DNA of 64,000 bases from Blasia pusilla (Eukaryota): assembly GCA_050084515.1 (NCBI GenBank), contig CM114271.1, positions 28,458,001 through 28,522,000 of the forward strand, written 5' to 3'. The translations under genes and the position numbers were made by a program. Positions 16,401-53,000 of the stretch are shown one piece after another. Below the pieces are notes generated by a model that made no database searches, had not been told where the DNA came from, and worked only from the letters and a program-made list of their open reading frames with translations. Within the stretch, counting starts at the first letter, position 1; every line of letters starts with the position of its first letter.

Positions 16401-16524
16401 TAATGGGCTTTTGCGGTGGGCTCAGGTTGTGGGAGACGCCGACGCTAGAGGCCCACTTAGTAGTAGTCATAGCTCTCTTGTTGTTGCTGATATTGTATTT
16501 GCTGTTGGTGAGTTTCGTCGTTAG
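13405..16524 (+). mobile_element. CRE-clade-like non-LTR retrotransposon (C2H2 zinc finger, RT, CCHC, restriction-like endonuclease), disrupted
   Basis: CPCCPKFFTRSGIRNHLAAKH zinc finger; RT motifs GGIRLIAIGE, DVENAFNSVSR, RQGDPLGGALF, LADD, LRVLGVPLG; C-terminal CEC...HLARC, RIATHDAVRD, RADL...ADV, K..Y and FIPLAIEMYG RLE motifs. Several in-frame stops and a frameshift near 14570. Confidence 0.9.
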
Positions 16525-26276: not shown

Positions 26277-26632
26277 TGGAGGTCAAAATCTTGTGGGGGC
26301 CATATCTTTCTAGTAGAGTGTCATGCTAAGCTGAAATTTTTAGGAAACGTGAATGTTGAGTAGACGCCAAGCCCTCCAAATTCAAGCCAAACCGAGTTAT
26401 AGCGAAGAAGTTGTGTGACATCTGAGATTCAACTCTTCTAAATTTAAGGATCGGAGGTCAGAATCTTGCGAAGGCCATATCTTTGTGGTGGAGTGTCATC
26501 TCAAGCTGAAATTTTCATGAACAGGGAAGGTTAGGAGGCGCCCTAGCCCTACAAATTTAAAACCAAAATGAATTACACAGAAGAAGTTGTGTGACATTTG
26601 AGACTTTTCTCTTCTGCATTTGAGGATTGGAG
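26277..26632. repeat. About two tandem copies of a 175-176 bp unit
   Basis: The GGAGG(TCA.AATCTT) anchor recurs at 26281, 26456 and 26632. Homologous to 42764-43075. Confidence 0.8.
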
Positions 26633-26639
26633 GCCATGC

Positions 26640-27621: not shown

Positions 27622-28676
27622 TATTATGCGTATACACATCACTACACAACATACATTTTTGTCACCGAACATACACACAAATACAAACGATCCCCTGCTA
27701 ACTCATGGCATCCAACCATCAACGTGATAAGTACCAAAAATATCTCCCATCGCCCACTAGTTGGTGATTAGGTCCCTCAAACTCCATATAACCATATATC
27801 CCTACCTACCATAACATGCATCTTTAGGATGCTAAGAGCAAAAAGGCATGGTGCTCATGAGCCCCCATCATTAATCGCCTTCTTGTCATCCATATCACAG
27901 ACACAAGTCTAAATCTATAACTACATACTCTATGTACATCTGGGACACATCCATCGTCCGCGATGAACACTAGTGAGAAGTGACGTTAGAGAAGCTATAT
28001 GCCACCCTCTCGAACATCCATCACAGACTAGCATAGTGGTTGCATCACGGGCAGAACTACAAAACATACAGTGCAATCTTGCAAGAACCATTTCTAAGCT
28101 CGAATTAATTGTATTGTCAATGTTAGGAAGGTGATATAGGGCACATTTACGCATATGGTCTTTCCAAACCATACCATGATGTCCCTCCAATAAAAGAAAA
28201 CCAGATGGCAAAACATCACGCACTCTCAAGATAGTGCGCCATGCAATCACATCCAACGTCGTGGATGCCATTTGCTACAAGTAGACATAGTCCCTTATGA
28301 AACCTCTGGATAGTAGGTTGATAACCACCTCCTTGAATAGTTGCATGCCTCAAAGTATCCCGATGCTGCGCAATTGCCAAGTTCTCAAATGCCATGGGCA
28401 TTTCTGTCTGAAACAACTCAACCCTCTAAGAACATGCTTGCATCCATACATTAGGGTCATCAAGATTCAGCACCTCACCAACATCTTAACAAATGGTCGG
28501 AGGTAAACTTGGCTCTCGGCCATAAAGCAACAAATATGGTGAGAAATATGCTAAGGATTCTTGCGTTAAGAATTTGTACCCATCGCCAACCACGAAAACT
28601 AAAGGTCCCAATCTCTTAGGTGACCTCTGTACAAGCCATACTTGCGTGAACCTCTCTCCAATGTATGCACAACCCT
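27622..28676 (-). mobile_element. Ty3/Gypsy PHD-family copy D: integrase C-terminus, PHD, PPT and a single B repeat
   Basis: MPMAFENLAIAQHRDTL...WKDH...CMFC...CDGCSRGWH...WMCPRC. The terminal ~128 bp (27622-27749) matches the B repeat at 46303-46428. Confidence 0.88.
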
Positions 28677-28853
28677 TATGATTTAGGTTGTTATATTAGG
28701 AATATCATTATTCATCGCTCAATTGCTCTAGGCATTGGCTAGGATAAGGCCTGGCCTCTAAGGTCTTTTCCTCTTTTGGTGTATTACTTGTAATGTGTTT
28801 TTTAGCCTTTTGACCTTTTTGGTCCCACGTGCTTGATTTATTTACCATTTACT
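28677..28853 (+). repeat. LINE 3' UTR/tail copy
   Basis: CCTTATGATTTAGGTTGTTATATTAGG...TTTACCATTTAC closely matches 11015-11190. Confidence 0.85.
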
Positions 28854-28859
28854 ATGGTT

Positions 28860-30518: not shown

Positions 30519-31300
30519 GCAACTTGTCGGAACCGGACGGTTTGCAAGTCGGAGGCATCCTAGGAATATCTATGTGCGACCCGTCGCAATCTGACGGGTT
30601 GCAGCATCCAGGAACCTCCTACTGCAACCCTTCGGAATCGGATTGATTGCAAGTAGGGGGTCAGTCTGACCTGGAAAATCCATATGCAACCTATCGGATT
30701 TCGACAGCTTGCAAGAAGTATCCAGAGACAAAGGTCTGCAACCTGTCGGAATCCGACGGGTTGCAGTAAATCTACACTGATGCAGCCTGTCAGAATCCGA
30801 TGGGTTGAAGATTGAGTTAACTCGTACCCTTGCAACCAACGAGCCGTCGGGATCCGATGAGTTACAGACTGATGCAACCTATCAGAATCTGACGTATTCT
30901 AGGATGTTGCATCTTGCAACCCGTCGGAAACCGACGATTTGCAGACTCAATATACTTTCAACCCGTCGAAAACCGACGGTTTGCAAACCTAGTATACTTT
31001 CTTACTTGCAACTTGCAACCCGTTATGATCTGGCCGATTGTAGGTTGATGCACCTTGCAACCCGTCGGAAAGCGACGATTTTTAGACTTAGTATACTTTC
31101 TTACTTGAAACTTGCGATCCGTCGGGATCGGACGGATTGCAGGAAGATGCACCTTGCAACACGTCGGAAACCGACAGTTTGCAGACTTAGTCTACTTTCT
31201 TGCAACTTGCAATATGTTGGGATCTGACGGGTTGCAGACTAATGCAACTTGTCGGGTTCTGACGACTTGCACACTAAGGCAACCAATCCTATCCGATGGG
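30519..31300. repeat. Array of ~16 degenerate 29-bp palindromes (TGCAACCCGTCGG-nnn-CCGACGGGTTGCA)
   Basis: Copies at approximately 30519, 30575, 30622, 30685, 30737, 30781, 30840, 30872, 30915, 30957, 31014, 31056, 31113, 31155, 31208 and 31243. They lie between a minus-strand AG|GTGAG donor (~31402) and acceptor-like sites (~30420-30445). Confidence 0.9.
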
Positions 31301-32952: not shown

Positions 32953-33532
32953 TGTCGTGCGAATCCACATCGTCATATAACATACATCATTGACATACCA
33001 TACTCACATACATACATAACATAGACGAGAGCATACACAAACACAAATGTACCACAACTGAAATCCGTGAAAGACCTACTATCATAAAACACATATAGAA
33101 TCACATACAATCCAGCCAAACCCACTCCACGATGGGAGAATCCAGGTCGAAGCTTGCGGGAACCACCATAGCCAAGAGCTCTACTCACTACCAAGGCTAA
33201 CTCCCAACGCAACACGCTCAACTCAAAGAACTAACTGTTCTTTGAGTACACTCCACACTATATCCTCCAACCTAAGGGCGGGCCCTATTGGAAAAGTCAT
33301 CCTCAACGGAGTAACCCCCAACCCTATGTTTGAAACGGCATCCCTACCTAGACACTACGGCCCTACATAAGGTATGGCCTATACTAGCACACTATACTCT
33401 ACGACATAATCCGTATGGTCATGACAACTGTCGTGCAAATCCTCATCGTCATACAATATACATCGCTGACATACCATACTCACATACATACATAACATAG
33501 ACGAGAGCATACACAAACACAAGTGTACCACA
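32953..33532 (-). repeat. Terminal repeat block of copy A: LTR 32953-33426 plus an extra 104-bp B copy at 33429-33532
   Basis: 32953-33056 and 33429-33532 are direct repeats. The LTR is bounded by TGTCGTG...CATGACA. A purine tract (plus-strand CGCCCCCCT) is at 33536. Confidence 0.85.
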
Positions 33533-35423
33533 ACTCGCCCCCCTAACTGGCGGTTAGGTCCCTCTAACTCCCAGGTAGCCCTATACATCTCCTACATGCT
33601 ATACACCTTCGTGGGAGCACAAATCAGAAGGTCGGATGCGAGGTTGCCCCATCGTTAGTTGCATATCTGTAATCCATATCATGCAAAGATCAAGTCATCT
33701 ATCCCTCCTAAGTACATCCAGGACAAACCCACCTTCCAGTAGGAACGACATCCACACGTGGAGTCAAACACATCATGTGCCAACCCCTAGAACACCAATC
33801 ACACTCCAACATACGGGCTACGTTACCAGCAGACCCACACAACATGCACCTCAAGCTAGCACGTATCATGGCTAATCTTGGGTCAACAGTACCATCCACA
33901 TTTGGAAGATGACATGGCGCACAATTACGCACATGCTCCTTCCAAACAACTCCGTCATGACCCTCCAAGATGAGAAGTCCAGAAGCTAACACTGCTCGCA
34001 CTCGTAAAATAGTGCGGCATGCCATCACATGCAACGTTGTTGGTACAATCTGCTGCAAATAGACATAGTCCCCCACATGGAACCTACAAATCGATGGTCG
34101 ATAATCTCCACCCTGAATGGTTGCATACCCCAAGGTATCCCTGTGTTGAGCAATGGCAAGATTCTCAAAGGCTGTTGGCATAACTCTCCGAAAGAGCTCT
34201 GCCCGCTGAGAACACACTCTCATCCACATCTTTGGGTCATCAAGGTTCACCACCTCACTAGACTCCTGATGAATTTCTGCTGGCAAGTCTAGATCTCGAA
34301 AATAATAGAAAATAAAAAAAGTCCGTATAACAGAAAATAAGGTGAGAAGGAAGCCAAGGATGCTTGGAAACTAAACCTATACCCCATGGCTAACCATGGC
34401 AACAGAATATCCCAGTCTCCAAGATGCCCCTTATGTAGGCCATACTGGCGCAATGCCCTCTTCACCTTCTGAACCACACGCTCAGCCAAACCATCCGCCT
34501 CTGGATGATCTCGAGACGTGGTTCGATGATCAATCAACGCCTTGTCACACAAGACCTGAAACTCACCCTGAAACTCTGTACCCCGTTTGGTCAACATCTC
34601 AGCTGGTGCACCAAAATAACTAAGCACTCTATCAAGAAACGCATACGCCGTTCCCTCACTTGCCTTGTCAGGTAATGCCACCAACTCAATCCACTTGGAG
34701 AAGTGCTCCACCATCACCAACACAAATCGATGATGTCGTACAATCAACGGTAACGGTCCTGCAAAGTCCACACTCCAACGGTAACCCAACCCCATAATAG
34801 GCAAGGGGTGTAACTGTGGTGTAGGGGCATTGAATGATGCCCTCACCTGGTGGCAAACCATACAACGTGACACCAACTGCTGCACTTGAGTATGCATGCC
34901 ACGCCACCAATACTCGCCAAGGAGTAAGCTATACGTACGCTTTACCCCAAAATGTCCCAACTCCTCATGGGCATGTCGCACAATGCGCTCTCTCTAAGCC
35001 AAATGCGGCACCACTCGTACTCTACCATCCTCCCACATACGGAGAATATGTGTTCCCTCCAATCGATACCTCCTAGCACGTTGAAGAACACGGTCTCGCT
35101 CCTTGGCACTCACTATGCCTCACACCCTATTGGTCCGTAGGAACTCCAACACCAACCCATAATCATGAATATCACGCTGATCCGTACCACCATCTCCAAC
35201 CTTAGGATCTGAAGGCTGGCCATCTTCCCTCTAACTAGAGTAAGATGTCATGTGGTCCTCCATATTAGAGTCCGCCCCTAACCAACATAAGAAGGCAAAT
35301 GCATGCCAACCTGGCACCATCTCCTCATCAACCTCGCCATGCCATCTAGCCCCAGTTGCATCCTCTTGGCTAGTACATGGTTTCCTACTCAACCCATCAG
35401 CATCAAGGTTGGCAACTCCAGGT
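32953..35423 (-). mobile_element. Ty3/Gypsy PHD-family copy A: end of RNase H, integrase, PHD and B-A-B terminus; interrupted at 35423 by copy B
   Basis: ORFs 34289-34981 (HAHEELGHFG, CMVC, WSVDFAGP, GLAER) and 33708-34286 (PHD). The RNase H motif PGVANLDADGLS abuts the copy B terminus. Confidence 0.93.
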
Positions 35424-36178
35424 TGTCGTGCGTATAGATATCGCTATACAACATACATCCCTGGTCACATCTACACCACACAACACCGATCTTCCCCACA
35501 CACGGGTCGATCCACACATGTACAAAAATAAACTTATACATATACATGGAGATCAAACAAAAAAGTAAAGAGTAGTAAAAATGGCACACCCGGCCTAAAA
35601 CTCCACTCCTCAATCTACATCGGCATATCAAGCCTCGTCCACCATGTGCTATCAAGGAATCTGGACGCTAGCACCCTAGTCCTATCCCACACACATACAA
35701 GAGAGGTGCTCCAACAACCCAACATGAGAAAGATGGCTTAAGAAAACCATCTTCCTCTCTTATATAGGGTTGGGAAGAGCCAAAAGGATCTTCCCCTAAA
35801 AATAGCCCTCCCCTTCGTAACCAGCTCGCATAGGTTACCAGGGGCGGGTGACTTGGTCAACAAGTCACTCGGCTAGGAAAGACCTCAACATGAAAGTTGT
35901 CAAAAATGACGTTCCTGACACAATGGACCTATCCTCAACCTCATCCGACACCATGGGAAAAACTTACACTCAAGATACTCTGATGGCTCCTACGCCCTAT
36001 CCACAATAGATCTCGGCCTATCGGCTACTCAGATGTGACAGCTGTTGTACGCATACATATCGCTACACAACATACATCGCTGATCACATGTACACCACAC
36101 AACACTGATCTTCCCCACACACGGGTCGATCCACACATGTACAAAAATCAACTCATACATATACATGGAGATCACACA
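35424..36178 (-). repeat. Terminal repeat block of copy B: LTR 35424-36040 plus an extra 136-bp B copy at 36043-36178
   Basis: 35424-35559 and 36043-36178 are direct repeats. The LTR reads TGTCACA...CACGACA on the minus strand, with a TATA-like CCTATATAAG at ~35757-35768. The PPT-like tract is at 36180-36190. Confidence 0.85.
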
Positions 36179-36256
36179 ACCGCCCCCCTAGTTGGCAGTT
36201 GGATCCCCCCAACTCCAGATAGAAAATATCACATCTCTCTGACATGACCTACTACC

Positions 36257-36397
36257 CTATACACATCTTGGACACATCCATCGTCACGTGGGAACCACAT
36301 CAAGAGGGGGGGTTAGACATGACATATGCCACCCTCGAGAACAACCATCACATACCAACATGGTGGCTGCATCCCTCGCAGATCCGCACAACATACA
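36257..36397 (-). other. PHD finger (Cys4-His-Cys3) at the integrase C-terminus
   Basis: CMLCGSARDAATMLVCDGCSRGWHMSCLTPPLDVVPT*RWMCPRC. Also present at ~33708-33850, ~27930-28075 and ~46560-46700. Confidence 0.93.
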
Positions 36398-36399
36398 CC

Positions 36400-37570
36400 T
36401 CAAGCCTGCAGGTACCATTGCCAAGCTCGGATCCACCGTCCCATCTACATTCGGAAGATGACATGGCGCACAGTTGCGCACATGATCCTTCCAGATCATG
36501 TGTTTCAGGCTTTGTGTGATCAGGCGCTGATAGATCACCGCAACACGTCCAGAGATCATCCTGAGGCGGATGGGTTGGCGGAGAGAGTGGTACAGACGGT
36601 GAAGAGAGGATTGCGCAAGTATGGCTTCCAGCAGGGACAGTTGAGGGAGTGAGACCTACAGTTGCCATGGTTGGCTATGGGTTATCGCTTTAGTCGGCAG
36701 GCATCCTTGGCGTCATTTTCACTGTACTTTTTGCTCTTTGGGAGAGAGCCACATTTACCTACAGCAATTTGAGGTGACATGGCGAAGGTGTTAGATCTTG
36801 ATGATCCAGATGTTTGGGTACAAGCATGTTCTCAGAGGGCAGAGGTTTATCGTAGAGTTATGCCTATGGCCTTTGAGAACTAAGCTATTTCCCAGCATAG
36901 AGATACATTGAGGTACGTGACCATTCGTGGAGGAGGTTATCGTCCAAGGATTAGGAGGTTTCATCCTGAAGATTACGTGGATGTCACTACAAGGCACCGC
37001 ACCCACGACGCTAGATGTCACTACAAGGCGCACGATCCTACGTGTGCGCAAGGTATTATCGACCGGAGTCCTCATGTTGGAGGGACGGGATGGTATGAAC
37101 TCGATACTCTGGTCAGTCAACACCTCCGCCGGTGCACCAAAGTGACTAAGCACACGATCTAGAAACGCATAAGTTGTTCCCTCGCTCGCCTTGTCTGGTA
37201 GTGCCACCAACTCTATCCACTTGGAGAAATGCTCCACCATGACCAACACGTACCTATGATGATGCCCCGTCAATTGCAAAGGTCCCGCAAAGTCTAAACT
37301 CCACCAATAACCTAAACCCATAATCGGCAAAGGATGTAACTGCGGAGTGGGAACATTGAAGGATGCTCGCACTCTCTCACATACCATACATCTAGCCACA
37401 AACTGTTGTATCCCAGTATGCATGCCGCGCCACCAATACTGAACTTGGAGTAAGCTGTAAGTACGCTTTACTCCAAAATGTCCCAACTCCTCAAGGGCAT
37501 GTCGCACTACACGTGCTCGTTGGGAAGGATGAGGTACCACTCGTATCCTACCATCTCCCCATACCCGCAA
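36400..37570 (-). pseudogene. Gypsy integrase (zinc-binding and DDE core), with 36500-37094 inverted
   Basis: HALEELGHFG...CMVC, WSLDFAGP and VLTDQ on the minus strand. The continuation (HPEADGLAERVV...) is on the plus strand at 36500-37094. Confidence 0.92.
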
Positions 37571-37899
37571 AATATGAGTCTCCTCCCACCTGAACCTCCT
37601 GGCTCTCTATAGGATCCGATCCCGCTCCCTAGCACTCACTGTACTCGCTATGATGCTAGTGCGCAAGAACTCCTCAACCTCCACGTCGTCATGGATATCA
37701 CGACCACCTGTCGCCTCCTCACTAACCTTTGGATCAAAAGACTCATCATCCAACCCCACCACTCGAGTCATCACCTGTGGCTGACCTGCCATAGTCAACC
37801 AAGAAAGATAGGCATATGCATGCCAACCGGGCACCATCTCCTCATCACTCTCTCCGTGCCATCGAGCTCTTGTGTCGTCTCTCTGACTCGGACATGGGT

Positions 37900-39333
37900 T
37901 ACGACTCAACCCATCCGCATCCTGGTTTAGCCGACCTGGCCTATGAACCACCTCAAACTCATATTCCTGTAGTAATAGAGCCCACCTGGCAAGCTTTCCC
38001 GTAAGCTTGTCGGACTCCATCAACCACCTCAACGGCTGATGATCAGTGATAAGTGTGAAAGGGTTTCCGAATAAATAGCACCTGAAATGTGCCACGGCCC
38101 ACACTACGGCCAAGCACTCTCCCTCGTAGGAGATGTACTTTGCCTCTGCAATGTTGTTCGATCGGCTCGCGTAGCCACAACGAACTCCCTCTCCTCATCA
38201 TCCCTCTGAGTAAGCACTGCTCCTAGACCCAACATGCTCCAATCCGTATGTAACTAGAATGGGCGACCCCTAACCGGTCTCTGTAAAATGGGTGAGGACG
38301 TCAACCTGTCCTTGAGCTCCTAAAATGCTCGCTCTAGATCATCTCCCCACAACCAAACCTGATCAAGTCTCATCAACAAGGTCAAAGACTTTATGATCGC
38401 ACTAAAACCCTTGACATATCGTCCATAGAAGTTCGCCAGTCCAAGAAATGCTTGGACTCGACTCACATCTGTAGGGCGTGGAATCTGCGCAATAGCCTCT
38501 ACCTTTGTCTGCTAAACGTCTAACCCACTTGGGTATATGATGTGTCCCAATTATTCAATCTGCTCTTGAAAGAATCTGCACTTGCCTGGATGTAACTTCA
38601 GTCCATGTAACTGCAATCGCCGAAACACCTCCTCCAAGTGTCGCTCATGCTCCTCAACCGTAGAACTGAAGATAAGAATATCATCTATGTAACATCGTAC
38701 AAAATCCAAGCCAGCCAGAATCCTATCCATCACTCTCTGAAACTCTGCAGGTGCGTTCTTCAACCCAAATGGTAAGAACCGCCACTAATACAAGCAATCT
38801 CTCCCGAACCGATCTATCCCCCAAAATGCTGTCCTCTTGTTGTCCTCCAACCTGATAGGAAGCTGATGATAGCCAACACGGAGATCTAAAGTACTGAAGA
38901 TCTTTGCATGCCCTACCGCATCAAAGATCTCTTCAGGAGAAGGCATGGCATATCGATTTGACCTCGTCTGTCAGTTGATAGGACGATAATCTCCACACAT
39001 CCGCCTATCCGTCCAATTGCCATACATATCCTTCTTCGCCGGCATGACTGTGGTAGATGCATACTCCCCATGTGATAACTCCACAAGTCCTGCCTCCAAC
39101 AAGTCCTGACTCTAGTTCTGAATCAAGGCTCGCTCCATATCAGAATACTTGTAGGATCGACGAAAGATCGGCGTATCGCTATCCAACTCAATCCGTATCC
39201 CTGGACCCTTCAGCGTACCCAAGTCTCTCATACTGAAGGCAAAACAACTGACATGCCTTCTCAGAAACCTATGAACTCGCCGTCGCTCTCCTCCTATCAA
39301 CTTGAGACCTATCATAGGTTCCCAAGTCTCCAT
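37900..39333 (-). pseudogene. Gypsy reverse transcriptase and RNase H
   Basis: RMCGDYRPIN, FSTLDLRVGYHQL, PFGLKNAPAEFQ, YIDDILIFS; RNase H TDWSMLGLGAVL, EGECLAVVWAV, TDHQPL, DADGLSR. Confidence 0.95.
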
Positions 39334-39639
39334 CGTGACCTCACTCGAAGAGAACGCAACCTCTGGCTTTGGTTGTATGTAGCAACCCTAGCCACCTCCG
39401 CAACAACCACCCCACTCTGACCTCCTACATCATGCTCCGCATCCGAAAAATGAACATGTGCTACTCCAGCAGGCTTCACACTCTCTGCTCAAATGACGTC
39501 CCAGGAAGTCCATGGGTGCCTATCTCTCCTCGTCTCGCCCCCAGCCAATGCCTGTACAGACCCTGTAGGCAATGGTCCAACTTGTGGAGGTTGACGTGAC
39601 GGCATGGATGACACTCGCATCCGTATCTGCTCAGCCATA

Positions 39640-40590
39640 CCTAGGCTGACTATCCATGTGAGACAGTTGAGGTCCATCGCCTGCCCCAACACCTATCTCT
39701 GGGATGCTTCAGTCATCCCTCGCACCGCCGTAGTATCGGTTGCGAACCCCATGGCGCGCTCGCACTCATTTGCTGTAGGCTCCTCCAATGCTCCGGTCAC
39801 CTCATCCCAAATCATGCCTGGCCCTCCCTAACAAAAGGCATGGGATGTTGGGAAGCTCACCAACGTAGGTAAGGCTGCCCTCAACTCCTCCACCCTATTG
39901 GCCATGGCCAACGGTGGTCTATCATCCCGTGTGACCACTTGAGATCGACGCCCTGAGCCCAAAATAGCATCCAGTGTGAGATGTGGTGCTCTTTGGACTC
40001 CATCGTATGCTCGATTCAGTTCCTCTGATAGTATCAGGTTCGTCCACCACAATCGTGGATGATAGGCACGTGATCCAACTCTCTCCGTATCTAATAACAC
40101 AGCAGGTCCCAACTATGACCTCACCTGATACACACTCGTCATCACACGTGCACGAGTGTCTCCCAACAATGGCACGTTCTCCAAGATGTACGTTGGAGAA
40201 TATGTCGGACTCTCCTGCAAGTGTCGTACTACTCGCAGTATCTCCCAAAACATCCCTGACCTCGGATCCTGCAATCCAAATCCTCGGCCAGCTGATGAAT
40301 GACCTTGACATGGCCATCCAGCAATCACCAAATAAATGGTGCCAACTCTATCCAGATCCTGTGCCCCCACCAAAGAGATGTCGGCGGGTAGTGTATGCTG
40401 ATATCCCCGTACTGCAGATACCGGAAACAACTCATGATACCTCTGGACCAATCTCGCCACGTGACGTAATGATACTCGCCGCGCGGTCTCATCTTTCTCC
40501 ACATAAAGGTACTTATGCACCTGTAAGCCCGCCTGCAATACTGCAGCTAATCCGGTGCTAATCCCTCCGAAGAGATCTAACACCCTAACA
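39640..40590 (-). pseudogene. DNA (cytosine-5)-methyltransferase catalytic domain, DNMT3-like, embedded in Gypsy pol
   Basis: Motifs in canonical order and one reading frame: I VLDLFGG, II VEKD, III ADI, IV AGWPCQG, V DPRSGMF, VI ILENV, VII LLD, VIII SRAYHPRLWWTN, IX ECERAMGF, X LGQAM. Three in-frame TAG stops. Confidence 0.93.
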
Positions 40591-40943
40591 CCCTCCTCTG
40601 GGCACTGCCACACAACGGGTGTGGTATTTAGTGTGGTCAACGTCTCCACTCCAAGAGCCCGATTGCCACGTGACTCTCGCTGCTCCGAGATAAAAGCATG
40701 ACTCCACGCCTGCCTCACGAAGTCGTCGACACTCCTTTGTAGCTCTCGAGTCGTACCCCACAATGGCGAAGAGGTCTCGCCAACATGGGAAGAGATACCC
40801 GCCATGGCCTGTCTCTCCGTGGGACTATCCACTATTGGGACATCCTCTGCATGTGCGTTCCCCTCCAAAAACTCTCTTGGCCAGCTAACACTACCTGTGA
40901 AAGCCGCCAACGTGGTCACAGACTCGCCTCGTAATCGACCACC

Positions 40944-42620
40944 TCATCCCGCAAATTGCACGGGTAACTGACTCATCCAGCCGTCACCTGACCGCCACCC
41001 TAGCCGATAAGCAACGGTCTCCTCCCAGAAGTCAAGGATGAATCCTAGGGGATATAACACTGTACTCCCCACCACCACATCGTACGACTCAGTTGGTGTC
41101 ATAATCGCACGTGTGCGCACCATAGCACTATCCATCTCATGCTCTGGTTGGACTCTGACAACTATCTTCTGTCGAGTCATATACTGCGTGGGTGACACGC
41201 CTCCAATCGAGGTCTGTATCTGGAAGGGACAAGGCTCAATGTCGGCCTTCCGTAACCCCAACGCTAAACACGCCGCCTTCCCTAACATCAAGGGTTGCAC
41301 TCCCGAATCAAGTAGGACGCGCTAGTGTCCCCGTCGGACTAACCAAGCAAAATACTCCAGCTTGGTAATCCAGTAACACTACTCTAGGTGTCACCACTGC
41401 TCGCTCGGTGCATCTCGCAGCACCTCGAGTTACCACTGCAGCTGCCTCAACCTGGGCTGCACTACACATAAACCCCATACTAGCGAGATCCTCACACGGG
41501 TCAGGGTAAGAGGTAGAAGTTGGAGTCACACTAGCTACTCGTAGCTCCGTGCCTTCCCTAAGCTGCATCATCGTCGTGGCAACAATCCTATGCTCCAACT
41601 GATCGATGCGTGAGAGAAGTGACGGCTGTGGTGCTCCTGCTCCATCTCCTCTGGCTGGTGGTGGTCCTCTACCACCACGTTGAGGAAGGACTCCCCAACC
41701 TCCCCCAGGACAACCGCCCCCAGGCCCTCAGCCTACCTCTGGACATGCCCCTCGGCAAAGGTCAAAACATCTATCCCTAGTGTGACCATATCTGTGGCAA
41801 TAGTCACACTGGTGCTGTGGTGGGGCCATCCTCTGTGGCTCCTGAGCAATCGGAGGCACTAGTGGTCCTCTCCCATGCTGTGGGCAGTCTTTCTGCCTAT
41901 GGGCCCCTCCATACGTCCAACAAGACCACATCGGTCCCTGTTGGGCAACATATGTAGGTATGCGTCGTTGCCTCATAGGCTCATGGTAACCGCCCTGCTC
42001 TTTGGGCACACCGACCCGCTTTCGTGGTACTGGTGCTCACTGTGGCATCTCTGGGGTCACCGTCGCTCGTGGACCGGTCGACTCTCGAGAAAATCCAGCG
42101 GTCACTACTTGCTCCTCACTCATGTTGAGCTCAATATGCTCAGACAACTCAAAGACCACCTTCAATGTGGGCTTCGCTATGTGAATGAGCACCACATCTC
42201 GGACTCTCCTTCGTAGTTCTCGGTCCAGAACCCCGTACCAATAAAGGACTGACTGCGCCTCAGTCACTCCATACGAAGCAATGATCAGCCTCCTCATGCG
42301 TGTGAATGCCTTTCTCAGACTCTCACCCGATCATCCCTGAAAATCTTGTAGACTCTTCAACTTGTCGGTACATACGCCCTGGTAGCTCTTCCCCAACTGT
42401 CGGAAGAACTCCACTTTGGGGCTGAAGCTGGGTGGCCCTCTACCACCAGAGGTCTCTGCCACATCGCCTCTCTCACTGCCCTCCTCTCCATCTAGTCGCC
42501 GGGCTGAGGGTGTGGGTCTCTCTCCTCCCACAATCCCATCATATGCCTCGCGACCACTAGTGGACACATACCCTGGACTCAATCTAGACTCCCTCTCACT
42601 GAGAGGTGTATTGTGTGACA
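40944..42620 (-). pseudogene. Gypsy gag (two zinc knuckles) and aspartic protease
   Basis: CWTYGGAHRQKDC and CDYCHRYGHTRDRC knuckles. Protease RVLLDSGVQPL (~41300-41325) and YDVVVG. Confidence 0.85.
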
Positions 42621-42763
42621 ATAAGCAACATGATGTGGAAACTTGCTAGTCTTTCCTCTTATTGACAGATCATCCTCTCAACTCTAGACATCCCATACAC
42701 GTCTATGAAAAGGAGATAAAAAAAGTAGAACCAATTTGCACGTAGAAAGAATGTGAGAATCTC

Positions 42764-43075
42764 GGGATTGGAGCTCAAAATCTTGCGGAGGCTGTATCTT
42801 TGTGTCAGGTCATGATCTCAAGCTAAACTTTGCAGGAAAATTGGAAGTTGCTAAGGAGCATAACTCTTGGAAATTTCAAGTACAACCAACTTATAAAGAA
42901 GAAGTTGTGTGGTGTTGGAGATTTTCCTCTTGAAGATTTGAGGATTGGAGCTCATAATCTTGCGGAGGCGATATCTTTGTGTCGGATTGTGATCTCAAGC
43001 TGAAAATTTATAGGGAAGTTGGAAGTTTCCAAGACGTAAAATTTTTGAAAATTTCAAGCACAATAAACTTATACA
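42764..43075. repeat. About two copies of a 177-bp unit related to 26277-26632
   Basis: The GATTGGAGCTCA.AATCTTGCGGAGGC anchor recurs at ~42773 and ~42950. Shares ATCTTTG...TCTCAAGCT...GAAGAAGTTGTGTG with the 26.3 kb repeat. Confidence 0.8.
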
Positions 43076-43079
43076 GAGG

Positions 43080-44640
43080 TGATGACACAACTAAGAAAAT
43101 AAACAAATGGAAAATGTAAAGATTTGGATGATCTTTCAATTGAACTTTTGAAGTGGGGAGGAGATTCTATCAGACTGATCCTCACCAATGTTTTGGGTGA
43201 TGCTACTCTCTATGGTTTTCCTTCTACTTGGTTACTACATGAGATTATTCCTATTCACAAATCAGGAATGAAGGATTTTAAGACAAACTATTGCATTATC
43301 ATGGTGAGTAGTATTTTTGCCAAGTTGTTTGGGAAATTGGTGGAGTCAAAGTTGAGGGCATGGACGGAGTATTTCCAAAAGAGAGCACGAGTTCAAACTG
43401 GTTTTTGCCCAACATACAACACCATCGACCATATCTTGGCCTTACGTGTTCTATGGGAGAAATCTAAGGGCAATGGGAAAGCTTTGTTTTGTGGTTTCAT
43501 CGATTTCAAGAAAGCTTTCGATATAGCATCTCATAAGCTCTTGAGGGATCAGTTGCAACCCATAGGGGTTCCAAAAAATCTCCTAGCTGCCATGGCCACA
43601 TTGTACTATTCCATTTGGGCCAATATCAAAGATTCACAAACTCAAGAGATTTTGAGTACTACCGGAGTCATTCAAGGTTTTCCTCTCTCACCTACTCTCT
43701 TTGGAGTTTTTATAGCTGCTATCGAAAAGTGATTGGAGTAATGTGAAAGTGAAGGTATAAAGCTTGGAGACTTTGATATCAAAGATTTATTGTATGTAGA
43801 TGATATCATATTACTTGCACAGGATGCCATTAGTTTACAAAAATATCTTGATACTTTGGAAAGTTTTTGTTCCAAGAATCAGATGGAGGTTAGTATGGAG
43901 AAGTCTAAAGTCATTGTAGTGGGTACTAGATCCAAGTTCTTCTTAATTTTCAAAGGTCTATAATTAGAATAAGTGAAGAGTTATAAATATATAGGCATTT
44001 ATTTCTCTCATGACTATAGTTGGGCACTTTGCTTACAAAAGAGAGTAGAAGCAAGTTACAAAGCTCTATACTCACTTTTCAATTGGTGTAGAAAAGCTCA
44101 TCTTATATCATGGGATCTTAGGAAGTTCTTATCTAGGAGGTTAGCTCTCCTTATGGTCTTATAGGGGACCCAAGTTTAGGGCCCTACTTGGAAGAAGATA
44201 GGTTGGGAGCGCGTGGAGAGGGTGCAAAAGATCTTTCTACCAGAAGAATTGGGTGTAAGAAACCAAACTCCTTATGCTATTCTTCTTGTGGAAATATGTT
44301 TTCTTCTTCGAGAGGATGAAGTTATCTACTTGACCATTAATTATATCGTAAGGTTGAGATTCTTGATATTTCTCACCTCCCTCATCAAGTTTTGCGAGTC
44401 ACACGTTCCATAGGGTGGATTGCAGATGTGGTAACTTGGTCTTCAAAGTGGAATATGGTCAATCATGATTGGGACTTGAATCTGATAGCACTCTGCGAGC
44501 ATCTATAGAACATTTTCTCACATTATTTGGAGTAGTCCAAGCACAAAAATGGAGTATTATCAACTTCATGTTAATCCTATGCTTGTATATTGTGAATAAG
44601 GGTACCTACTTGCGGGATCTCCACCTTCGTACATCATATT
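43080..44640 (+). mobile_element. LINE reverse transcriptase fragment, disrupted
   Basis: IIPIHKSG, QTGFCP, FIDFKKAFD, GVIQGFPLSPTLF, LYVDDIILL, YKYIGI. Confidence 0.88.
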
Positions 44641-45657
44641 ATCGGATGACAAAGCGGAAGACTATAAAGATAAAATTAGGAATGAAGTAATCATTATGAT
44701 GTAATAATAAATACAAATTTATTTAAACCAAGCAAGAAAAAAATATGAAAGTAAAAGTACATAAGAGATGGCATAATTACAGTTGTTAGAAGGGGAAGTA
44801 CATCGTATGCAATTATCATAATCGTAGAAAATAACCCAAATTTAGAATATAAAAATTTTAATTACGGCCTCTACATGTACGGTGTGTCATAAATTCTTGG
44901 TCCTCGCGGATCCACGTCGTTGTTTGTAGTTATGGATGCAGAGGCCATCCAGCGGTGACTGAACGCTACTTGTCACTACAAGAATGGTCATGCTACGTAC
45001 TAGGTTTCCTAGCCCGAGAGCATCCTAGGGCAAGTATTGCGGCTCTGCTGGCTAACACCGCGTGCAAAATTATGGCAGCCGTCTCCCAAGTTTTCTCACG
45101 CTCAATCTATTTTTGTTCATTAATTCGATTATAGAGCAGCATTGGTTCGTTGCTTCTTGGTTCGTGCGATGGCACGCTCGACGGTGGCACGCTTGGTACT
45201 AAACTTCCATGCTCCCACCGTGATGCTCTGCCTATCAGTTGCATTGTCTACTACGGGCACTCAGTGCCGTTTTCCTTTCGATCTCCTTTCAACGTTTTCC
45301 TTTCCATCCCTCTTCATTGACTGACAAAGCTTCTCCTTTCGTCCAGTTCTGGTCTTGCGCTCTCGATCATTTGCTTTGCACAATCTAGTTTCGGTCCGTG
45401 ACTGAAACTCAACTGCATTTGCTTTGGGACAACCCATTTCATTTCGATAACTTTTTGCCTTTGTAATAGTTGCGGTGCTTATTTATTGATCATCGGCACT
45501 CGAGCAGTTCTGCGCCCCATCACGATTCATTTACGGCGATTGATTGCTCATTCCCTTCTCGTTAGCTCTTCTTGTAATTCAGACTTTCTTGCAATCCCTC
45601 TTCTCTGGTTTAGGGTCTATTCTCCCAGATCTCCTCCTCTACGTCTTGTTTCGAGCT

Positions 45658-46820
45658 TGTCGTGCGCATACACATCGCTACACAACATACATCGTTGTCA
45701 CCAAACACACACAGAAACACACACGATCCCATGCTAACTCATGGCATCCAAACAACGAGACAAGAAGTACCAAAATATCTCCAATAAAATAAGATCCAAT
45801 CTTTCTCACAATACCATAATTCTCATATGTGTGCACTCTCACATGTCCCTTTCAATGTCAAACCAAACCCACTCTCCTAACGATAGGCTTGGGTTACACT
45901 CACAAGGCAAGGGACCATAGCTCTGCCGCCTCATGCTAAGAGGTTCAACAAAGAGAGAATGAGCTGTCAAGCTTTCTCTCCTTGAGGTATACTCGTCTCC
46001 TCCCTCAAGCTCTCTCCATGATAACCTATGCTCCCAAGTCACCTCATTGGCTCTTGACTTGATGTAGGAGCTTAAGGGCCACTTACCAAAAATATAAAGT
46101 GGACCATATACTCAAAATGGTACTTACCTAAGATAGTAAGTTCCTCAATATGGCTCCAAATGAGCCGAAACGAAGGGGAAATCTTCTCTCTCAGGTTTTC
46201 CGGGGCCTCAACAGGTCATCCTCAACCTCCTGAGCTTGTCCTCCACTACTTGAGAAGGAGCTCTACTAGATCTCACTGATTTATCCTAAAAGATATGACA
46301 GCTATCGTGCGCATACACATCGCTACTTAACATACATCACTGTCACCGAACACACACACAAATACGCACGATCCCATGCTAACTCATGGCATCCAAACAA
46401 CGAGACAAGAAGTACCAAAATATCTCCAATCGCCCCCTAGCTGGTGGTTAGGTCCCTCTAACTAAGAGCAAGAAGGCCGGGTGCTTATGTGGTCCCATCG
46501 TTAGTCGTCTTCTTGTCATCCATGTCATAGATACAAGTCAGAATGTAGAACTACCTACGCTATGTACATTTGGGACACATCCATCGTCCCTGAGGTATCC
46601 TAGTGAGAGGTAGCGTCAAACATGCCGTATGTCATCCTCTCGAACATCCATCACAGACTAGCATAGTGGCTCCACCACCAGCGAATTGACACAACATACA
46701 CCTCAAGCTGGTAGGAACTACTGCTAAGTTTGGATCAACTGTACCATCAATGTTTGGAAGATGACATGGCGCACAGTTATGCACATGGTCCTTCCAAACC
46801 ATACCATCGCGTCCCTCTGA
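45658..46820 (-). mobile_element. Ty3/Gypsy PHD-family copy C: PHD end, PPT, B (46303-46428) and LTR (45658-46300)
   Basis: EGRDGMVWKDHVHNCAPCHLP...CMLC...CDGCSRG. 126-bp direct repeats at 45658-45783 and 46303-46428. Confidence 0.9.
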
Positions 46821-47342
46821 TTGGTAGTCGCTGGACGACGATCGAGTACTATGTCGTGACATCGTAGCTATAAGGCGCCATTGATTGTCGGAAATTTGCC
46901 GTGTTGTGCCGCTCGTGGACGCACCGCATCATCTTGATCATGGAGCCACACCATGATTGGGGAGTAGAGCGTGTCTTTTTTATAAAGGAGAGGTATGCCA
47001 CTAAGTGCCGTATCTCATTTCTCGAGTGGCGTGCTGTTTATAGCCATTCCGTGTTGCCAGTGTTGAAGCGTATCGCTGGACCCACACTACACATCAAAGA
47101 GGTTGGGGCATTGTCAATACTAGAGGAGTGTGACTTGGTGATTGGAGGAGTTTGTCTTCACGACTGAGTTGGGATCGCAATTTGCAGTTTTTGAGGAGCG
47201 ATATTTACATTTGTTTAGGTTACGCATTCTGATCTTTTGCCTTAGGGTGAGGGAATTCCATGTATTGGGAAATTATTTGGGGATACTGGATTTTGATGCA
47301 GATGCAAATAGCATTATTGATGTAGGTGGCTTAGGAGACATA

Positions 47343-47633
47343 TAATGGTAAATGGTAAATAGATCAAGCTCGTGGAACCCAAAGGATCAAAAGGCTAAAA
47401 AACATCTTGCAAGTAATACACTGACTCAGGAAAAGACCCTAAAGGCCTTCTCTTAGCCAATGCCTAGAGCACTCCAACGATGAATAATAAAATCCCTAAT
47501 ATAATAAGCTAAATCATAAGGCACTAGCTATAGCTATAGAAAAGAATAGAAAATATCCACATCTATTTTATGAGCTAGTCTAATTTCTTCATACCTTGGA
47601 CATGTAACAAACACATGCTCTTCATCCTCAATC
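47343..47633 (-). mobile_element. LINE 3' fragment in reverse orientation
   Basis: AATGGTAAATGGTAAAT tail. Reverse complement of ~10905-11190 (IEDEEHVFVTC). Confidence 0.85.
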
Positions 47634-48504
47634 ATTATGCATAGCTAAGCGGAAAGAAAACTCAGACCTCATAAATCAAGAGGTCACCTGTCATCACTGG
47701 AAGGTACTCGCAAATAGTGGGTGTGCGACGGTCGATGATGACACAACTACACCGGTACGTCCTACTAATGTTATTAGAAATAACTCCACATTGCACTCTG
47801 TCACGAAGGGTTATCCGTGATAGCCAACAACAAAGTATAGTCTACTAGTGACAAAGTGGAAGTCGAAACATAAGTGGCGACATTAACAAGTCTGCATATC
47901 AATAACCGTTAATCATGATTGTTCAATGAGCAAGGATAAGAGACAACAACGCAATGTCGGCATTAACAAGGGTCCCCCACTCATGGAGTGGGATAGATGA
48001 CATCGATTGACTAGACGCGTGTTAGATAGACAACGGTCGAGCGACGTGGTTATTTGGATTGTCACGCAAGATTTTCACGACCACATCCAAGGTTATCGCG
48101 ATAGAGCAAAGCTAAGGCGTTGGCCTGCCATGGATGGTAAGGCGATAAGGCCGTAACAAGACAGGGACAATATCTAAGCTGCAAGGGTCTGCTATAAATT
48201 GGAAGTCAGTTGGCTTTTGCAATCGTTGGATGGAGGCAGGCTAGCACGGATTATGGCAGGTTAGTAGGCAAGCACGGCAACTGTGACTAGGGTGACCAGG
48301 GCTAGAGCCAACAATATAGCATGGGGAGCGTCCGAAAGCACAGGTAAGGAGTGCGGTTAGTGGCTCGTAGGGCGAGCCACAACTGGATACGGGCAGAGCC
48401 ACAGCACGGCCGGAGCAAGCGGATTGGCGGTAGCAACGCGGGTCGACAGGAAATATGGTGCGGGATGAGGGTTGAAGGTGGCGGTCGAAGGCACTTTCTA
48501 CAAT

Positions 48505-49326
48505 AGGAATTGGGTTTGAGAAACCAAACTCCTCATGCTTTTTTTCTTGTGGAAAGAAGTTTCTATCCCTCAAGGTAGAAGCTTTCTACTTGGCCATCAC
48601 TTATATCGGAAAGGCTCATCAGATCTTTTGATATTTCTTGCCTCCCTTGTCAAGTTTTACAAGCTGTACGCTTCAGAGGATGGCTAATAAGTATGGTAAC
48701 TTGGTCTAAAAAATGGAATGTGATTGAACAAGATCAAGAATTGAAATAGGTGGCGCATCGTAAGCATCCAAAAATATATTTCTCAGCATTCTTTGGAATT
48801 GATAGAGCATAAAAATGTAGTATTTTCAAATTCATATTAATCCCATACTTATATATTATGAACAAACAATACTTACTCACAGAGATCTCGACTTTCATAT
48901 GTGATACTAGTGCATCAAATCGAACTACCTCTCATAGACTATGCATAGTGGGTCCCACATGCTTGATTTCTTTATCATATATTGAGGAGAAATGTTGGCA
49001 CAATATTTATGGAATTGAATTAAATTATTGCTTATGAAATGTAAGAAGTATTGAGAATGAAAATCATATATTTATTACATGTCATAAGTATGAAGAAATT
49101 AGACTACCTCATAAAATTGATGTGCGAAATACATATTCTTTACTATAGTGTCTTATGATTTAGGTTGTTATATTAGGAATATAATTATTCATCTTTTGAG
49201 TGCTCTAGGCATTGGCTTCTATGGTCTTTTCCTCATTTTTGTATTATTTATGATGTGCTTTTTAGCCTTTTGACCTTTTGGATCCCATAGATGGGTTTGA
49301 TTTATTTATTATTTCTCTTTTACCAT
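48505..49326 (+). mobile_element. LINE 3' part (post-RT region, CCHC and tail), decayed
   Basis: GAATTGGGT.T.AGAAACCAAACTCC aligns with 44246 onward. Ends in the shared 3' UTR and TTTACCA. Confidence 0.75.
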
Positions 49327-50026: not shown

Positions 50027-53000
50027 ATCACCCCCCCTCTCAATATCCACTCTCATGTGGACTAATGTCTTGGATTGATGCCAGACACTTCAGATGTCGT
50101 TGAAGCTCATCTCTGCTCAAGGCTTTGGTGAATACGTTTGCACGGTTATCCTCTGTTGGACAATTGACTAACTTTAAAACCTCTCTCTCGATCAACTCTC
50201 AAACAAAATGATAGTGAATCTCTATGTGCTTTATACAAGCATGAAACAAACGATTATGTGCTATGGAAATGCAACTCTAATTGTCACACCACATTACAGT
50301 AACACTTTGTGGTGCTTCTCCTATGTCTTCCAATATCTATCTCAACCATACTACTTCACAAGAAGCATAACAAGCCGCCTTGTACTCTGCCTTGGTAGAA
50401 CAAAGAGCCACTGTAGGTTTCTTCTTGCTGACCCATGATACCACACCTAATCCTACCAAGAAAAAATTAATACTAATACCTCCATTAGCGAGACCACTAT
50501 CTTACACTCGGTCATCCTGAATCCCTTCAAAATTTCTCTAGCATACTTTTGCTGAGATAGAAAAATAGAATCGGACTGTTGTCAAATCTCCAAGCCTATA
50601 AAGTAGTGCCAAAGGCCTAAATCTGACATTTCAAACTCAGATTTCAATACTTCCTTCATTTCCTCTATTTTCTTACTGTGGTCTCCTGTCATGATAAGAT
50701 CATCAACATAAATGACTATCACCATATATATCCCATCTTTGCAAAACACATACAAATTTGCTTCTGATAGACTTTTGATGAGACCCCTCTCTCGGAAGAA
50801 TGTATCTATTCGTTAATACCATACCCTTGAGGGCTTCCTTCAACCCTTACAATGCTCGATGAAGCGAACACACTTTCTCTTCTAATCTGAGTTTCTCAAA
50901 ACCTAGTGGTTGAGATATATATACCTTCTCCTTGAGACTCCCGTTCAAAAATACAGACTTAACATCGTGTTGGTATACAAGCCAACGTCTTGTTCCCGCC
51001 ATCGCTAGAACAATTCGAATGGTTTTCATCCTTGCAATAGGAGCAAAAGTCTCATAGTAAGAAAAATCTTTGATTTGTGAACATCCTTGTGCAACCAAAA
51101 TTGCTTTGAGTTTATCCAATGTATCATTGGACTTGTACTTGGTCGTGTACACCCATTTGGTGCGTAGTATCTTCTCGTCTTTTGGGTTTTCAACCAAAGT
51201 CCAAGTTTGATTTCTTTGAATAGCGTCCATCTCTAACTGCATGGCCTCTCTCCATTGAGGATGAGCAAGGGCCTTATCCAAGCATGATGGCTCTTCCACC
51301 TTCAAGACCTCTATCATCAAGGCCATGTTCATGAGATGTGCGGAAGCTCTATTCTACTCCTCTAGTCTCTTGGATCTCCTAGGATGTGTAGCAACTTCAT
51401 CAATTGCTGGTGGATCCTTACCATCCAAGAGTTGCTTAATCCACTTAGGGTATGACAAAAGTAGTGGAAGAGTAGGTTGTTGTTTGTAATCATCACCAAA
51501 TTCTTCTTCTTAATGATCCAATGTAAACATTGATCATGTGCTCTAGTAGGTTATCTCTTTTTTTGATGATAATGTGGATGGACCACTGATATTCGCCACT
51601 TGATGAGGATGCTCCTTAAACACCACATCACGACTCACAATCATCTTCTTTTCCTCAAGAAACCCTAGGCAATAAGCTTTAGACTCATCATTGTATCCCA
51701 TAAAGATGCACTTCTTGCTCTTGGACTCGAGCTTAGTCCTGGATGTATTAGGAATACGTACAAAGCACTCACTACCAAAAGTCCTGAAGTGTTGGACTGA
51801 TGGTACCTTACTTGAGTATGCTTGATGAGGAGGCATGCCTTGCACTGATTTGGTAGCAATTCTATTTAGAATGTAAACAACAGTATTAACGGCTTCAACC
51901 CAAAATCCTTCTATCAAACCTTTTGCTTGCATCATTCATCTTGCCATCTTCATCAATGTACGGTTTCAACACTGAACAACTCCATTTTGTTGTGATGTAT
52001 GTGCCATGGTTAAGTGTCGCTTGATTCCATTCTCCCCTAAATATTTGTTGAATTTTGTTGATAAGAATTCTCCTCCTTGATCGGTGCGAAGCTTCTATAC
52101 CTTCTTTCTTATCTCATTCTCAACCAGCTTGTGTCATACTTTAAATTTTCCAAAACACTTGCCTTATCACGAAGGAAGTACATCCACATCTTCCTACTAT
52201 AATCGTCGACAATAGAAAAGAAGTAGGAAGAACCACCTAATGCCATTGTTTGCATTTTACCATAGGTCAACATGTATAAGCTCTAGAGGAGCCTTTGCTT
52301 TATTGTTGAACTCTTGTGGAAATGATTGTCGGTGTTGCTTGCCCATCATACAAGCTTCAGATGTATTTGACACTCCATAAATTGTTGGTAAATCAACGAC
52401 CATGCCAGATTTCTGCATCTGACTCAGTAAGGGAAAGCTTAGGTGGCCAAATCTTTCATGCCCTAACTTACTACTATCAAGATTGATACCTACACTTTTT
52501 GTGAAAGCATACAACTCGTAGATATTTCCACAATATATATACCTTCATCCACTACTTTCCAATCGGCATCCTCAATGACTGCTCCAAATTTCTTGAAACG
52601 AACTTCTAAGTTGCAATCACATAATACAACTACTGAAAGAAAATTGCGCTTTAACTCTAGTACGTACAGTACATCAGTTAACTTCTTTTCATCTACTTTT
52701 TGTTAGACTAAATAAATTGTGTCTTTCCCTTCTAGAGGGCACTTTGCATTACTCCCAACAATAACAACGACGAACTCCTATAGAGGCTGTAAGGAGCTAT
52801 ACTAATCCTTATGATTGGTCATATGCCTAGATGCTCCACTATTGAGCACCCATGCATCTTCACTCTTTAACTTAGTGGAATTTTCTGCTTATATACAAAA
52901 ATCTTTGATTGCTACCCAAGCATCTATCTCATGTTCTCCTAGTTCTACAGAATTTCCAAACTCTTTCCTATGTCTTAAGCAATCGTTCTTCTTATCCTGG

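Follow-up and report, generated by a model that had tools for sequence, protein, structure and literature searches.

Textbook long terminal repeat (LTR) elements insert the ends that are made by reverse transcriptase (RT). Another layout, the split direct repeat, is known from the DIRS order (Ngaro, PAT, SymbioDIRS), whose members show the order A1-X-B1-A2-B2, with X as the internal part and an internal B-A junction that holds information for both ends; TOC1 is also among the split-direct-repeat elements. Members of the DIRS order carry a tyrosine recombinase and are not known to make a target-site duplication (TSD). For Klebsormidium nitens an element has been described, KnitGypsy-Dnmt3, that combines Gypsy domains with DIRS-like repeats in the order A-coding-B-A-B (de Mendoza et al. 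2018, PMC5890265), and a 2026 preprint names the group 'Gypsy-DNMT3 (streptophytes)'. Section 9 and the legends of PMC5890265 give for KnitGypsy-Dnmt3 no TSD, primer site, position of the polypurine tract (PPT), mechanism or form in which B is followed directly by flanking DNA (B|flank form); its PDF supplements may hold more. This was the only paper in which we found the layout, and no paper on the mechanism was found, subscription journals and Repbase reports being outside the search. The split-repeat layout is already in print, and its mechanism is unexplained in those parts of the paper. Here we analyse a Gypsy-type family with this layout in a stretch of 64,000 nucleotides of Blasia pusilla DNA (GCA_050084515.1, contig CM114271.1, positions 28,458,001 to 28,522,000 of the forward strand), called the window throughout, and in related metagenome loci.

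Three copies of the family in the window, A, B and C, all lie on the minus strand and, read in that direction, share the order G-run PPT, B1, two nucleotides, A (starting with TGTCA), B2 (ending in ...GACA) and then unrelated DNA. This terminus had been described for the same three copies in an earlier sequence-only reading, and self-comparison of the window from 30 to 50 kb, used for the detection of direct repeats, confirmed it, with coordinates that agree to 2-3 nt at the 5' edge of B. In copy A, the PPT (AGGGGGGCG, 33536-33544, a motif that recurs in related loci) is followed directly by B1 (33429-33535), the spacer GT of an ACA-nn-TGT junction, here called junction J (33427-33428), A2 with its TGTCA start (33060-33426, homologous to A of related loci in 41 BLAST matches) and B2 (32953-33059), which ends in ...GACA and is the right end of the inserted element. 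Copy B has the PPT at 36181-36190, B1 at 36043-36179, the spacer GC of junction J at 36041-36042, A2 with a TGTCA start and a TATA box at 35561-36040 and B2 at 35424-35560. In copy C, what is left of the element upstream of B1 is the PPT (46431-46440) and the PHD end of pol (together 46431-46930), the remainder of the copy being missing; B1 (46303-46430), the spacer GC (46301-46302), A2 (45786-46300) and B2 (45658-45785) follow.

The B blocks of the three copies were detected both by self-BLAST and with a B profile. B1 and B2 are 93% alike over 107 nt in copy A (BLAST E 8e-40), 91% over 137 nt in copy B (E 1e-49) and 94% over 126 nt in copy C (E 5e-49). A degenerate 36-nt pattern of the 3' end of B gave 5 matches against 0.00 expected by chance, and the nhmmer profile of B recognised exactly 8 B copies in the 64 kb. 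Between copies B is strongly diverged: copy C and a further member, copy D, are 84% alike, and all other pairs far less, while B1 resembles B2 inside each copy.

By their domain content these copies are members of the streptophyte Gypsy-DNMT3 group of Ty3/gypsy, with a DDE integrase, a PHD finger in place of the chromodomain and a DNMT3-type domain in the polyprotein. Pfam found integrase (H2C2, rve) and a C-terminal PHD finger in the internal part of copy A (33545-35423), whose upstream part is cut off at 35424, where copy B has its right end. The internal region of copy B (36191-42650, including a gag-like N-terminal part) holds a C5 DNA methyltransferase domain of DNMT3 type (PF00145, 40116-40943) upstream of RT (38554-38970), RNase H (38000-38253), integrase (36794-37606) and PHD (36287-36655). 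The pol order RT, RNase H, integrase (rve DDE core, H2C2) is that of Ty3/gypsy; instead of the two identical LTRs by which Ty3/gypsy is defined, the family has A only at the left end and B-nn-A-B or B only at the right. The PHD finger (PF00628) stands at the C-terminus of the integrase in copies A, B and D, where a chromodomain would stand. All copies in the window are decayed, with stops and frameshifts, of which copy B has many; there, a segment of the C-terminal part of the integrase (about 36499-37097) is inverted relative to copies A and D, which could be a rearrangement or an assembly error.

The open reading frame (ORF) of copy B with the DNMT domain shares 58% identity with polyproteins from the liverworts Calypogeia and Marchantia; its matches also include Sphagnum polyproteins. 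Against the PDB, a homologous polyprotein matched DNMT3A/B/C only, in all 25 rows listed. Liverwort and moss polyproteins (Marchantia, Sphagnum) are collinear with the copies and align along 42579-35424; copy B is therefore one element without its 5' end, truncated near 42650 by an AT-rich repeat. By its published description, KnitGypsy-Dnmt3 shares with the window family the Gypsy-type polyprotein with a DNMT3-type domain and the A-coding-B-A-B repeats. Its host is different: the best protein matches of the window copies are from liverworts and mosses, and no K. nitens sequence is among the 40 protein matches listed for the DNMT ORF.

Related elements were collected by scanning metagenome contigs with an alignment of the C-terminus of pol; 80 loci were kept, all of which were probed with the leader of one locus and with its A and B. 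Most belong to one subfamily near copy A. B follows the PPT in all 57 loci with a B match at most 1.8 kb downstream of the pol match: 18 are PPT-B-nn-A-B, 27 are PPT-B|flank and end exactly at ...ACA, 6 are truncated, and 6 have A2 with B2 unseen because of a contig end or a rearrangement. Among the 56 loci whose sequence continues for at least 700 bp past the pol match, self-BLAST recovered the B1...B2 repeat in 19. Eight locus pairs are nearly identical and some other loci have a common flank, so that the distinct insertions number about 12-14 for B-A-B and about 22-25 for B|flank. The forms extend to distant subfamilies, as L073, L075 and L076 show B-nn-A-B and the L070 subfamily has the PPT-B|flank end; L079 and L080 begin B-nn-A-B, and their sequence breaks off or is interrupted inside A. 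No member of the family, in the window or among the related loci, has an ordinary PPT-LTR end, a finding that disposes of one scenario named in the sequence-only reading as its possible refutation. Moreover, no purine tract precedes A.

The repeats also agree in detail. In 16 elements there is no fixed difference between B1 and B2, which upholds the earlier proposal that the duplication of B is maintained through replication. The spacer of junction J is GC in 11 rows, AC in 6 and AT in 5, and the remaining 2 rows are one locus with a deletion. At the joint of A with the final B, written A~B, no extra base is found in 13 of 18 rows. The exceptions include L026, which is merely mutated, one locus with a later insertion of 826 bp inside B2, and one with a 19-nt insert whose last two bases are those that precede B1.

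Two family members of the window had been absent from the sequence-only reading. Copy D (27622-28677, minus strand), of the copy-C subfamily, consists of the end of integrase, PHD, the PPT (27751-27760), B (27622-27750, found with the B profile) and then unrelated flank, and so has the PPT-B|flank form. On the plus strand, a solo A~B of the copy-B subfamily (11799-12371, also found with the B profile) has no PPT or B upstream. It is the one member in the window that allowed a TSD comparison: its 4-nt flanks, TCCG (11795-11798) and TCTG (12372-12375), match at three of four positions, the mismatch being a CpG transition.

At the left end, the 5' repeat was A only in the first loci compared (L015, L023, L044, L053 and L062), and in all 17 related loci with a visible 5' end the leader comes directly after A, with no B on either side of it. 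This answers a question left by the sequence-only reading, whether the 5' end is A, A+B or B. A1 and A2 are 86-92% identical. A motif match in L073 and L075 that was considered as a 5' end proved to be a chance match, and the reverse element in L080 gave no clear 5' end. Duplications of 4 bp border the element, before A1 and after the last B, in 8 of the 11 related elements with both ends visible. Among the complete B-A-B elements the TSD is perfect in three of four (TCTC, AAGG, CATA), and the fourth (AATG) agrees once the damage to its 5' tip is taken into account; among B|flank elements it is perfect in five of seven (ACTA, TGTT, TACA, ATTA, TGTG), with a match at three of four positions in one locus and none in the other. 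The inserted element is thus shown to be TSD-A1-X-PPT-B1-nn-A2-B2-TSD, starting with TGTCA and ending with ACA, the 4-bp TSD lying around the whole A1...B2 unit.

These ends bear on three explanations that would leave the replication of the element ordinary. In the first, the right end would be a composite, either of a short-LTR element (LTR B) with an adjacent solo LTR or terminal-repeat retrotransposon in miniature (A-B), or of an autonomous and a non-autonomous element in tandem that share LTR B. B indeed starts near TG and ends in CA, as an LTR would. However, the 5' end begins with A and not with B, A1 matches A2 at the identity given above, the 2-nt spacer is constant with no TSD around A-B, and a single TSD spans A1...B2; we regard a composite as very improbable, and the scenario of an independently inserted A-B, also named as a possible refutation of the earlier reading, does not hold. 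In the second, the LTR would be A-B, and B1 with its 2 nt would be the inherited remnant of a former LTR-LTR junction that lies between PPT and 3' LTR, a view that would suit the TG...CA ends of A-B and the solo A~B in the window. Against it, the 5' repeat lacks B in 17 of 17 loci, no purine tract stands before A, and B1 should drift from B2, yet they show no fixed differences and co-vary between subfamilies; a relic seems to us as improbable as the composite. The third, the least probable of all those considered here, would make B-nn-A-B the LTR at both ends, with an internal direct repeat. It is in keeping with a PPT that abuts B1 and an element that ends with B2, but in none of the 17 loci is the 5' A preceded or followed by B, and direct repeats inside an LTR are quickly lost in reverse transcription, which also counts against it.

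In Tf1, the 5' end of the RNA itself primes the minus strand. The related loci with 5' ends have no tRNA primer-binding site (PBS) of the TGG type abutting A, the kind of site that the sequence-only reading had suggested looking for; the site found after A instead predicts self-priming. Directly after A1 stand 11 nt (CTCAAAGAACT) that are the complement of AGTTCTTTGAG, a sequence within A that lies 170 nt before its end, and in 14 of 17 loci the best complement of the 11-nt site lies at that same place in A. A match of at least 10 of 11 positions is seen in 7 of the 17 loci against none of 425 control 11-mers, 12 of which reach at least 9 of 11. The sub-lineage of L044, L066 and L074 is altered at two positions on both sides (TTCGAAGAACT with AGTTCTTCGAA, in place of CTCAAAGAACT with AGTTCTTTGAG), that is, the two sites covary. 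The complement site lies 29-31 nt after a TATA-like box in 11 of 14 loci, the exceptions being L008 and L009 (22 nt) and L048 (137 nt, the nearer box having decayed). In predicted folds of the RNA starting at the complement site, the first 12 nt are paired with the primer site in both the minimum-free-energy and the centroid structures; in overall energy the folds are unremarkable (z -1.6 and -1.1). The homology of A1 and A2 stops exactly at the 11-nt site, indicating that copying starts there. From these features it is probable that the minus strand is self-primed by the 5' end of the RNA, in the manner of Tf1.

The complement site is the 3' arm of a hairpin in A. A hairpin of different sequence recurs in the window copies A, B and C and in L073-L076; in copy A it is ACTCAAAGAAC / GTTCTTTGAGT, inside A2 at the predicted transcription start (33247-33221, minus strand), and in copy B GAGGAAGATGG / CCATCTTTCTC. 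The upstream arm of the hairpin was considered as a second primer site and dropped, as the products it predicts were not seen. In the leader of L023 after A1 (about 1850-1900 and 2018-2050), as in other loci, two motifs of A are repeated in the same order (CTCAAAGAAC ... TTGGGAGTAGTT), as though the surroundings of the predicted RNA start had been copied, in shortened form, into part of the leader. Self-priming has been predicted for the moss Tcn1 clade (Neumann et al. 2019, PMC6317226), and in Tf1/Sushi elements and plant Tcn1 (PMC6317226; Novikova et al. 2010, PMC2864245), too, a tRNA-type primer site is lacking and the site beside the repeat is the complement of the predicted transcript start. 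Where the window family has split repeats and a PHD finger, these elements carry LTRs of the ordinary kind and a chromodomain.

The positions of the PPT and of the primer site suggest an explanation for the whole layout, which we favour at somewhat better than even confidence: ordinary reverse transcription would yield an LTR of the order B-GC-A, the integrase would use a palindrome inside it, and the inserted copies would be circular permutations of an end-joined or circular cDNA. With the PPT directly before B and the primer site directly after A, the repeat produced by a reverse transcription of ordinary geometry would be B-GC-A (LTR2) and not A-B. The genomic RNA would be R-U5 (the 3' half of A1)-PBS-X-PPT-U3 (B1-GC-5' half of A2)-R, its 5' end would prime the minus strand as in Tf1, and the cDNA would be LTR2-X-LTR2, that is, (B-GC-A)-X-(B-GC-A). 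The integrase would then bypass the termini of the cDNA and cut after CA on both strands of the ACA-GC-TGT palindrome inside LTR2, a cut that would produce a pair of recessed CA-3'OH ends carrying 2-nt overhangs and so reproduce the geometry seen where two retroviral ends have been processed. If the termini were joined first, the A-end to the B-start, by formation of a two-LTR circle or by an end-to-end template switch, and one site were opened, A-X-PPT-B-GC-A~B would result. The product would be A-X-PPT-B if the substrate were a one-LTR circle or a linear cDNA with a cut in each of its LTRs, and a two-LTR circle cut twice would also release an A~B piece carrying both ends.

All three predicted products are present in the window: the first as copies A, B and C, the second as copy D and the third as the solo A~B. 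Since both copies of LTR2 would derive from one template, B1 should equal B2 and A1 should equal A2; the model would also account for the constant 2-nt spacer, the co-variation of B1 and B2 between subfamilies, and an A~B joint made of the end of A and the first base after the PPT with no extra base. Because only A-X-PPT-B-GC-A~B keeps a full U3-R downstream, only this form could give the complete RNA again and it would be the only possible master copy. The interpretation given in the sequence-only reading stands in part. Its suggestion of an unusual priming or strand-transfer route needs amendment: once the LTR is taken as B-nn-A the priming sites are in ordinary positions, and the unusual step is more likely the choice of the ends that are integrated. 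Its likening of CA-nn-TG to an LTR-LTR circle junction likewise needs amendment, as the motif is best read as an integrase site inherited inside U3, and the literal end-to-end joint of the cDNA would be A~B.

A palindrome of this kind has a counterpart in retroviruses, as the integrases of foamy virus and HIV-1 cleave the palindromic LTR-LTR junction of two-LTR circles (PMC1180852, PMC1905944, PMC4372172). According to these reports, a CA-nn...TG palindrome is cut there by a DDE integrase so that integration-competent ends arise from a circle; for the present family such a cut is proposed. The two cases differ in that the retroviral junction is the joint of the cDNA ends and belongs to a side route, whereas here the palindrome would lie inside the LTR, would be the only route, and the inserted copy would be permuted. 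The broader claim is that the integrase of the family ignores the termini made by RT and uses CA-GC-TG inside the LTR, that only circular or end-joined cDNA gives a viable insertion, and that an independent, integrase-based route to split repeats has thus arisen together with Tf1-like self-priming. We advance this claim tentatively, holding it slightly less probable than its opposite.

The permuted layout could also be made without a circle. RT itself might produce a linear A-X-PPT-B-nn-A-B by extra or unusual strand transfers, with the integrase acting on true termini and no end joining, which is essentially the idea of the sequence-only reading. The precision of the A~B joint in most copies would suit this, and so would the absence, in all 17 visible 5' ends, of the mirror product expected from a symmetric circle. 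However, no template with B after A was found except a read-through RNA, and the read-through part would lie 3' of the acceptor of the first jump, with no primer site after it since host flank follows B2; furthermore, the PPT and the primer site bound B-nn-A and not A-B. We consider this origin unlikely, although it is the strongest of the competing explanations. Replication of the DIRS or Ngaro kind, in which a full-length single-stranded or circular cDNA would be closed on the B1-A2 splint and inserted by recombination, would account for the shared layout A1-X-B1-A2-B2. It is improbable here, as Pfam scans of the window ORFs found no tyrosine recombinase and, among integrase domains, only H2C2 and rve, the 4-bp TSDs are the mark of DDE integration, and the PPT and primer site are placed as in LTR elements. 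The comparison with split-direct-repeat elements of the DIRS/Ngaro type made in the sequence-only reading was nevertheless right as regards layout, which is the same, with A alone at the 5' end, and is here combined with a DDE integrase.

Transcription was followed in three RNA-seq runs (X22, X23 and X24), whose species label is that of the best DNA sources, by mapping reads on L023:1600-10352 at 85% likeness. Each run gave 2401-2630 reads on L023, mostly less than 90% alike and spread over gag-pol. There was a strand bias, reads with the first mate on the minus strand being far in excess (depths in the last bin of 85-143 against 0.2-6). Reads that run from the PPT into a B resembling the start of copy C (TTGGAGATATTTTGG...) numbered 44 in X22 and 106 in X23. 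A subfamily of copy-C type is transcribed, apparently in sense, and its RNA carries PPT-B. A further group of reads (16 in X22, 25 in X23 and 37 in X24) skips 1007 nt at L023 8583-9591 with 8 other letters at the joint, which suggests a transcribed deletion derivative of the family.

Several observations weigh against the permuted-LTR model or narrow its base. The 17 visible 5' ends all belong to a single subfamily from metagenome contigs; none was found in the window or the 80 loci for the window copies or for the B-, C- and L073-type subfamilies, B-profile and repeat searches of the window gave no 5' repeat of copies A, B and C, and none of the 80 loci has an A sequence of B or C type. Contigs of a repeat family can also be chimeric; matching TSDs across 6.6-9.9 kb (the longest TSD-matched element being L074, a B|flank copy of 9887 bp), speak for the reality of the forms, as does copy D in the window. 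The mirror product A~B-GC-A-X-PPT-B is seen at none of the 17 5' ends, 7 of which belong to B-A-B elements, where a symmetric circle predicts equal numbers; either the joint is made asymmetrically, or the mirror form decays fast, or the model is wrong at this point. An asymmetric joint could arise if the plus strand were extended past the right end on to the left. Later deletion between B1 and B2 may instead account for the B|flank copies, and TSDs do not discriminate between such deletions and primary products. The least diverged copies are of the B|flank form (0.030-0.039 from the majority sequence, against 0.041-0.090 for B-A-B copies), and this pattern is the sole hint that B|flank copies are primary products. 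In addition, the model assigns no function to the conserved upstream arm of the hairpin, which copies the primer site within A, and the repeats and leader of L023 attracted no RNA reads at 85% likeness, this reference being too unlike the expressed subfamily.

The remainder of the window holds other mobile DNA. A fifth, very decayed copy of the family is represented by integrase and PHD fragments (25275-26130, minus strand); no B repeat is recognisable after the weak purine run of this copy. The DNA after the solo A~B (12372 onward) was considered as gag of the family and rejected, since its sequence is not the family's gag. The plus-strand region 12372-18000 is GC-rich (48-54% GC), with a weak RVT_1 match (14569-15354) followed by an open frame of 388 amino acids that matched no Pfam family; it is a retroelement of unknown type, unrelated to the split-repeat Gypsy family. 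A repeat of about 290 bp occurs at 10899-11192, 28674-28855, 47344-47632 and 49042-49314 and adjoins the truncated copies C and D; two of its copies, in inverted orientation, enclose about 1.4 kb (47344-49314) in the way that terminal inverted repeats bound a non-autonomous DNA transposon. A tandem repeat of about 177 bp, rich in AT, occurs at 26275-26636 and at 42765-43077; at the latter place it adjoins both the 5' truncation of copy B and an RVT_1 ORF on the plus strand (43103-43729). At 30873-31252, units of about 99 bp that contain palindromes are repeated in tandem. Copia-type fragments (RVT_2, retroviral SH3-like domain), with an ORF carrying a zinc finger of C17orf113 type, lie on the minus strand at 50850-51935 and 8266-8721.

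In contrast to the DIRS order, the window family has an integrase of the rve type and a TSD of 4 bp, its PPT and primer site occupy the positions usual in LTR elements, and its inserted ends and its priming sites disagree by exactly one repeat block, B. This raises a testable question: can the normal substrate of a retroviral-type integrase be an internal junction, so that the enzyme relies on DNA that is circular or end-joined? In annotation, such elements will be missed or wrongly bounded by LTR finders built to look for a pair of equal LTRs, dating by LTR divergence must use A1/A2 or B1/B2, and the B|flank and solo A~B forms need classes of their own. As a subfamily is transcribed in the species labelled as that of the best DNA sources, the mechanism could be tested by observation alone.

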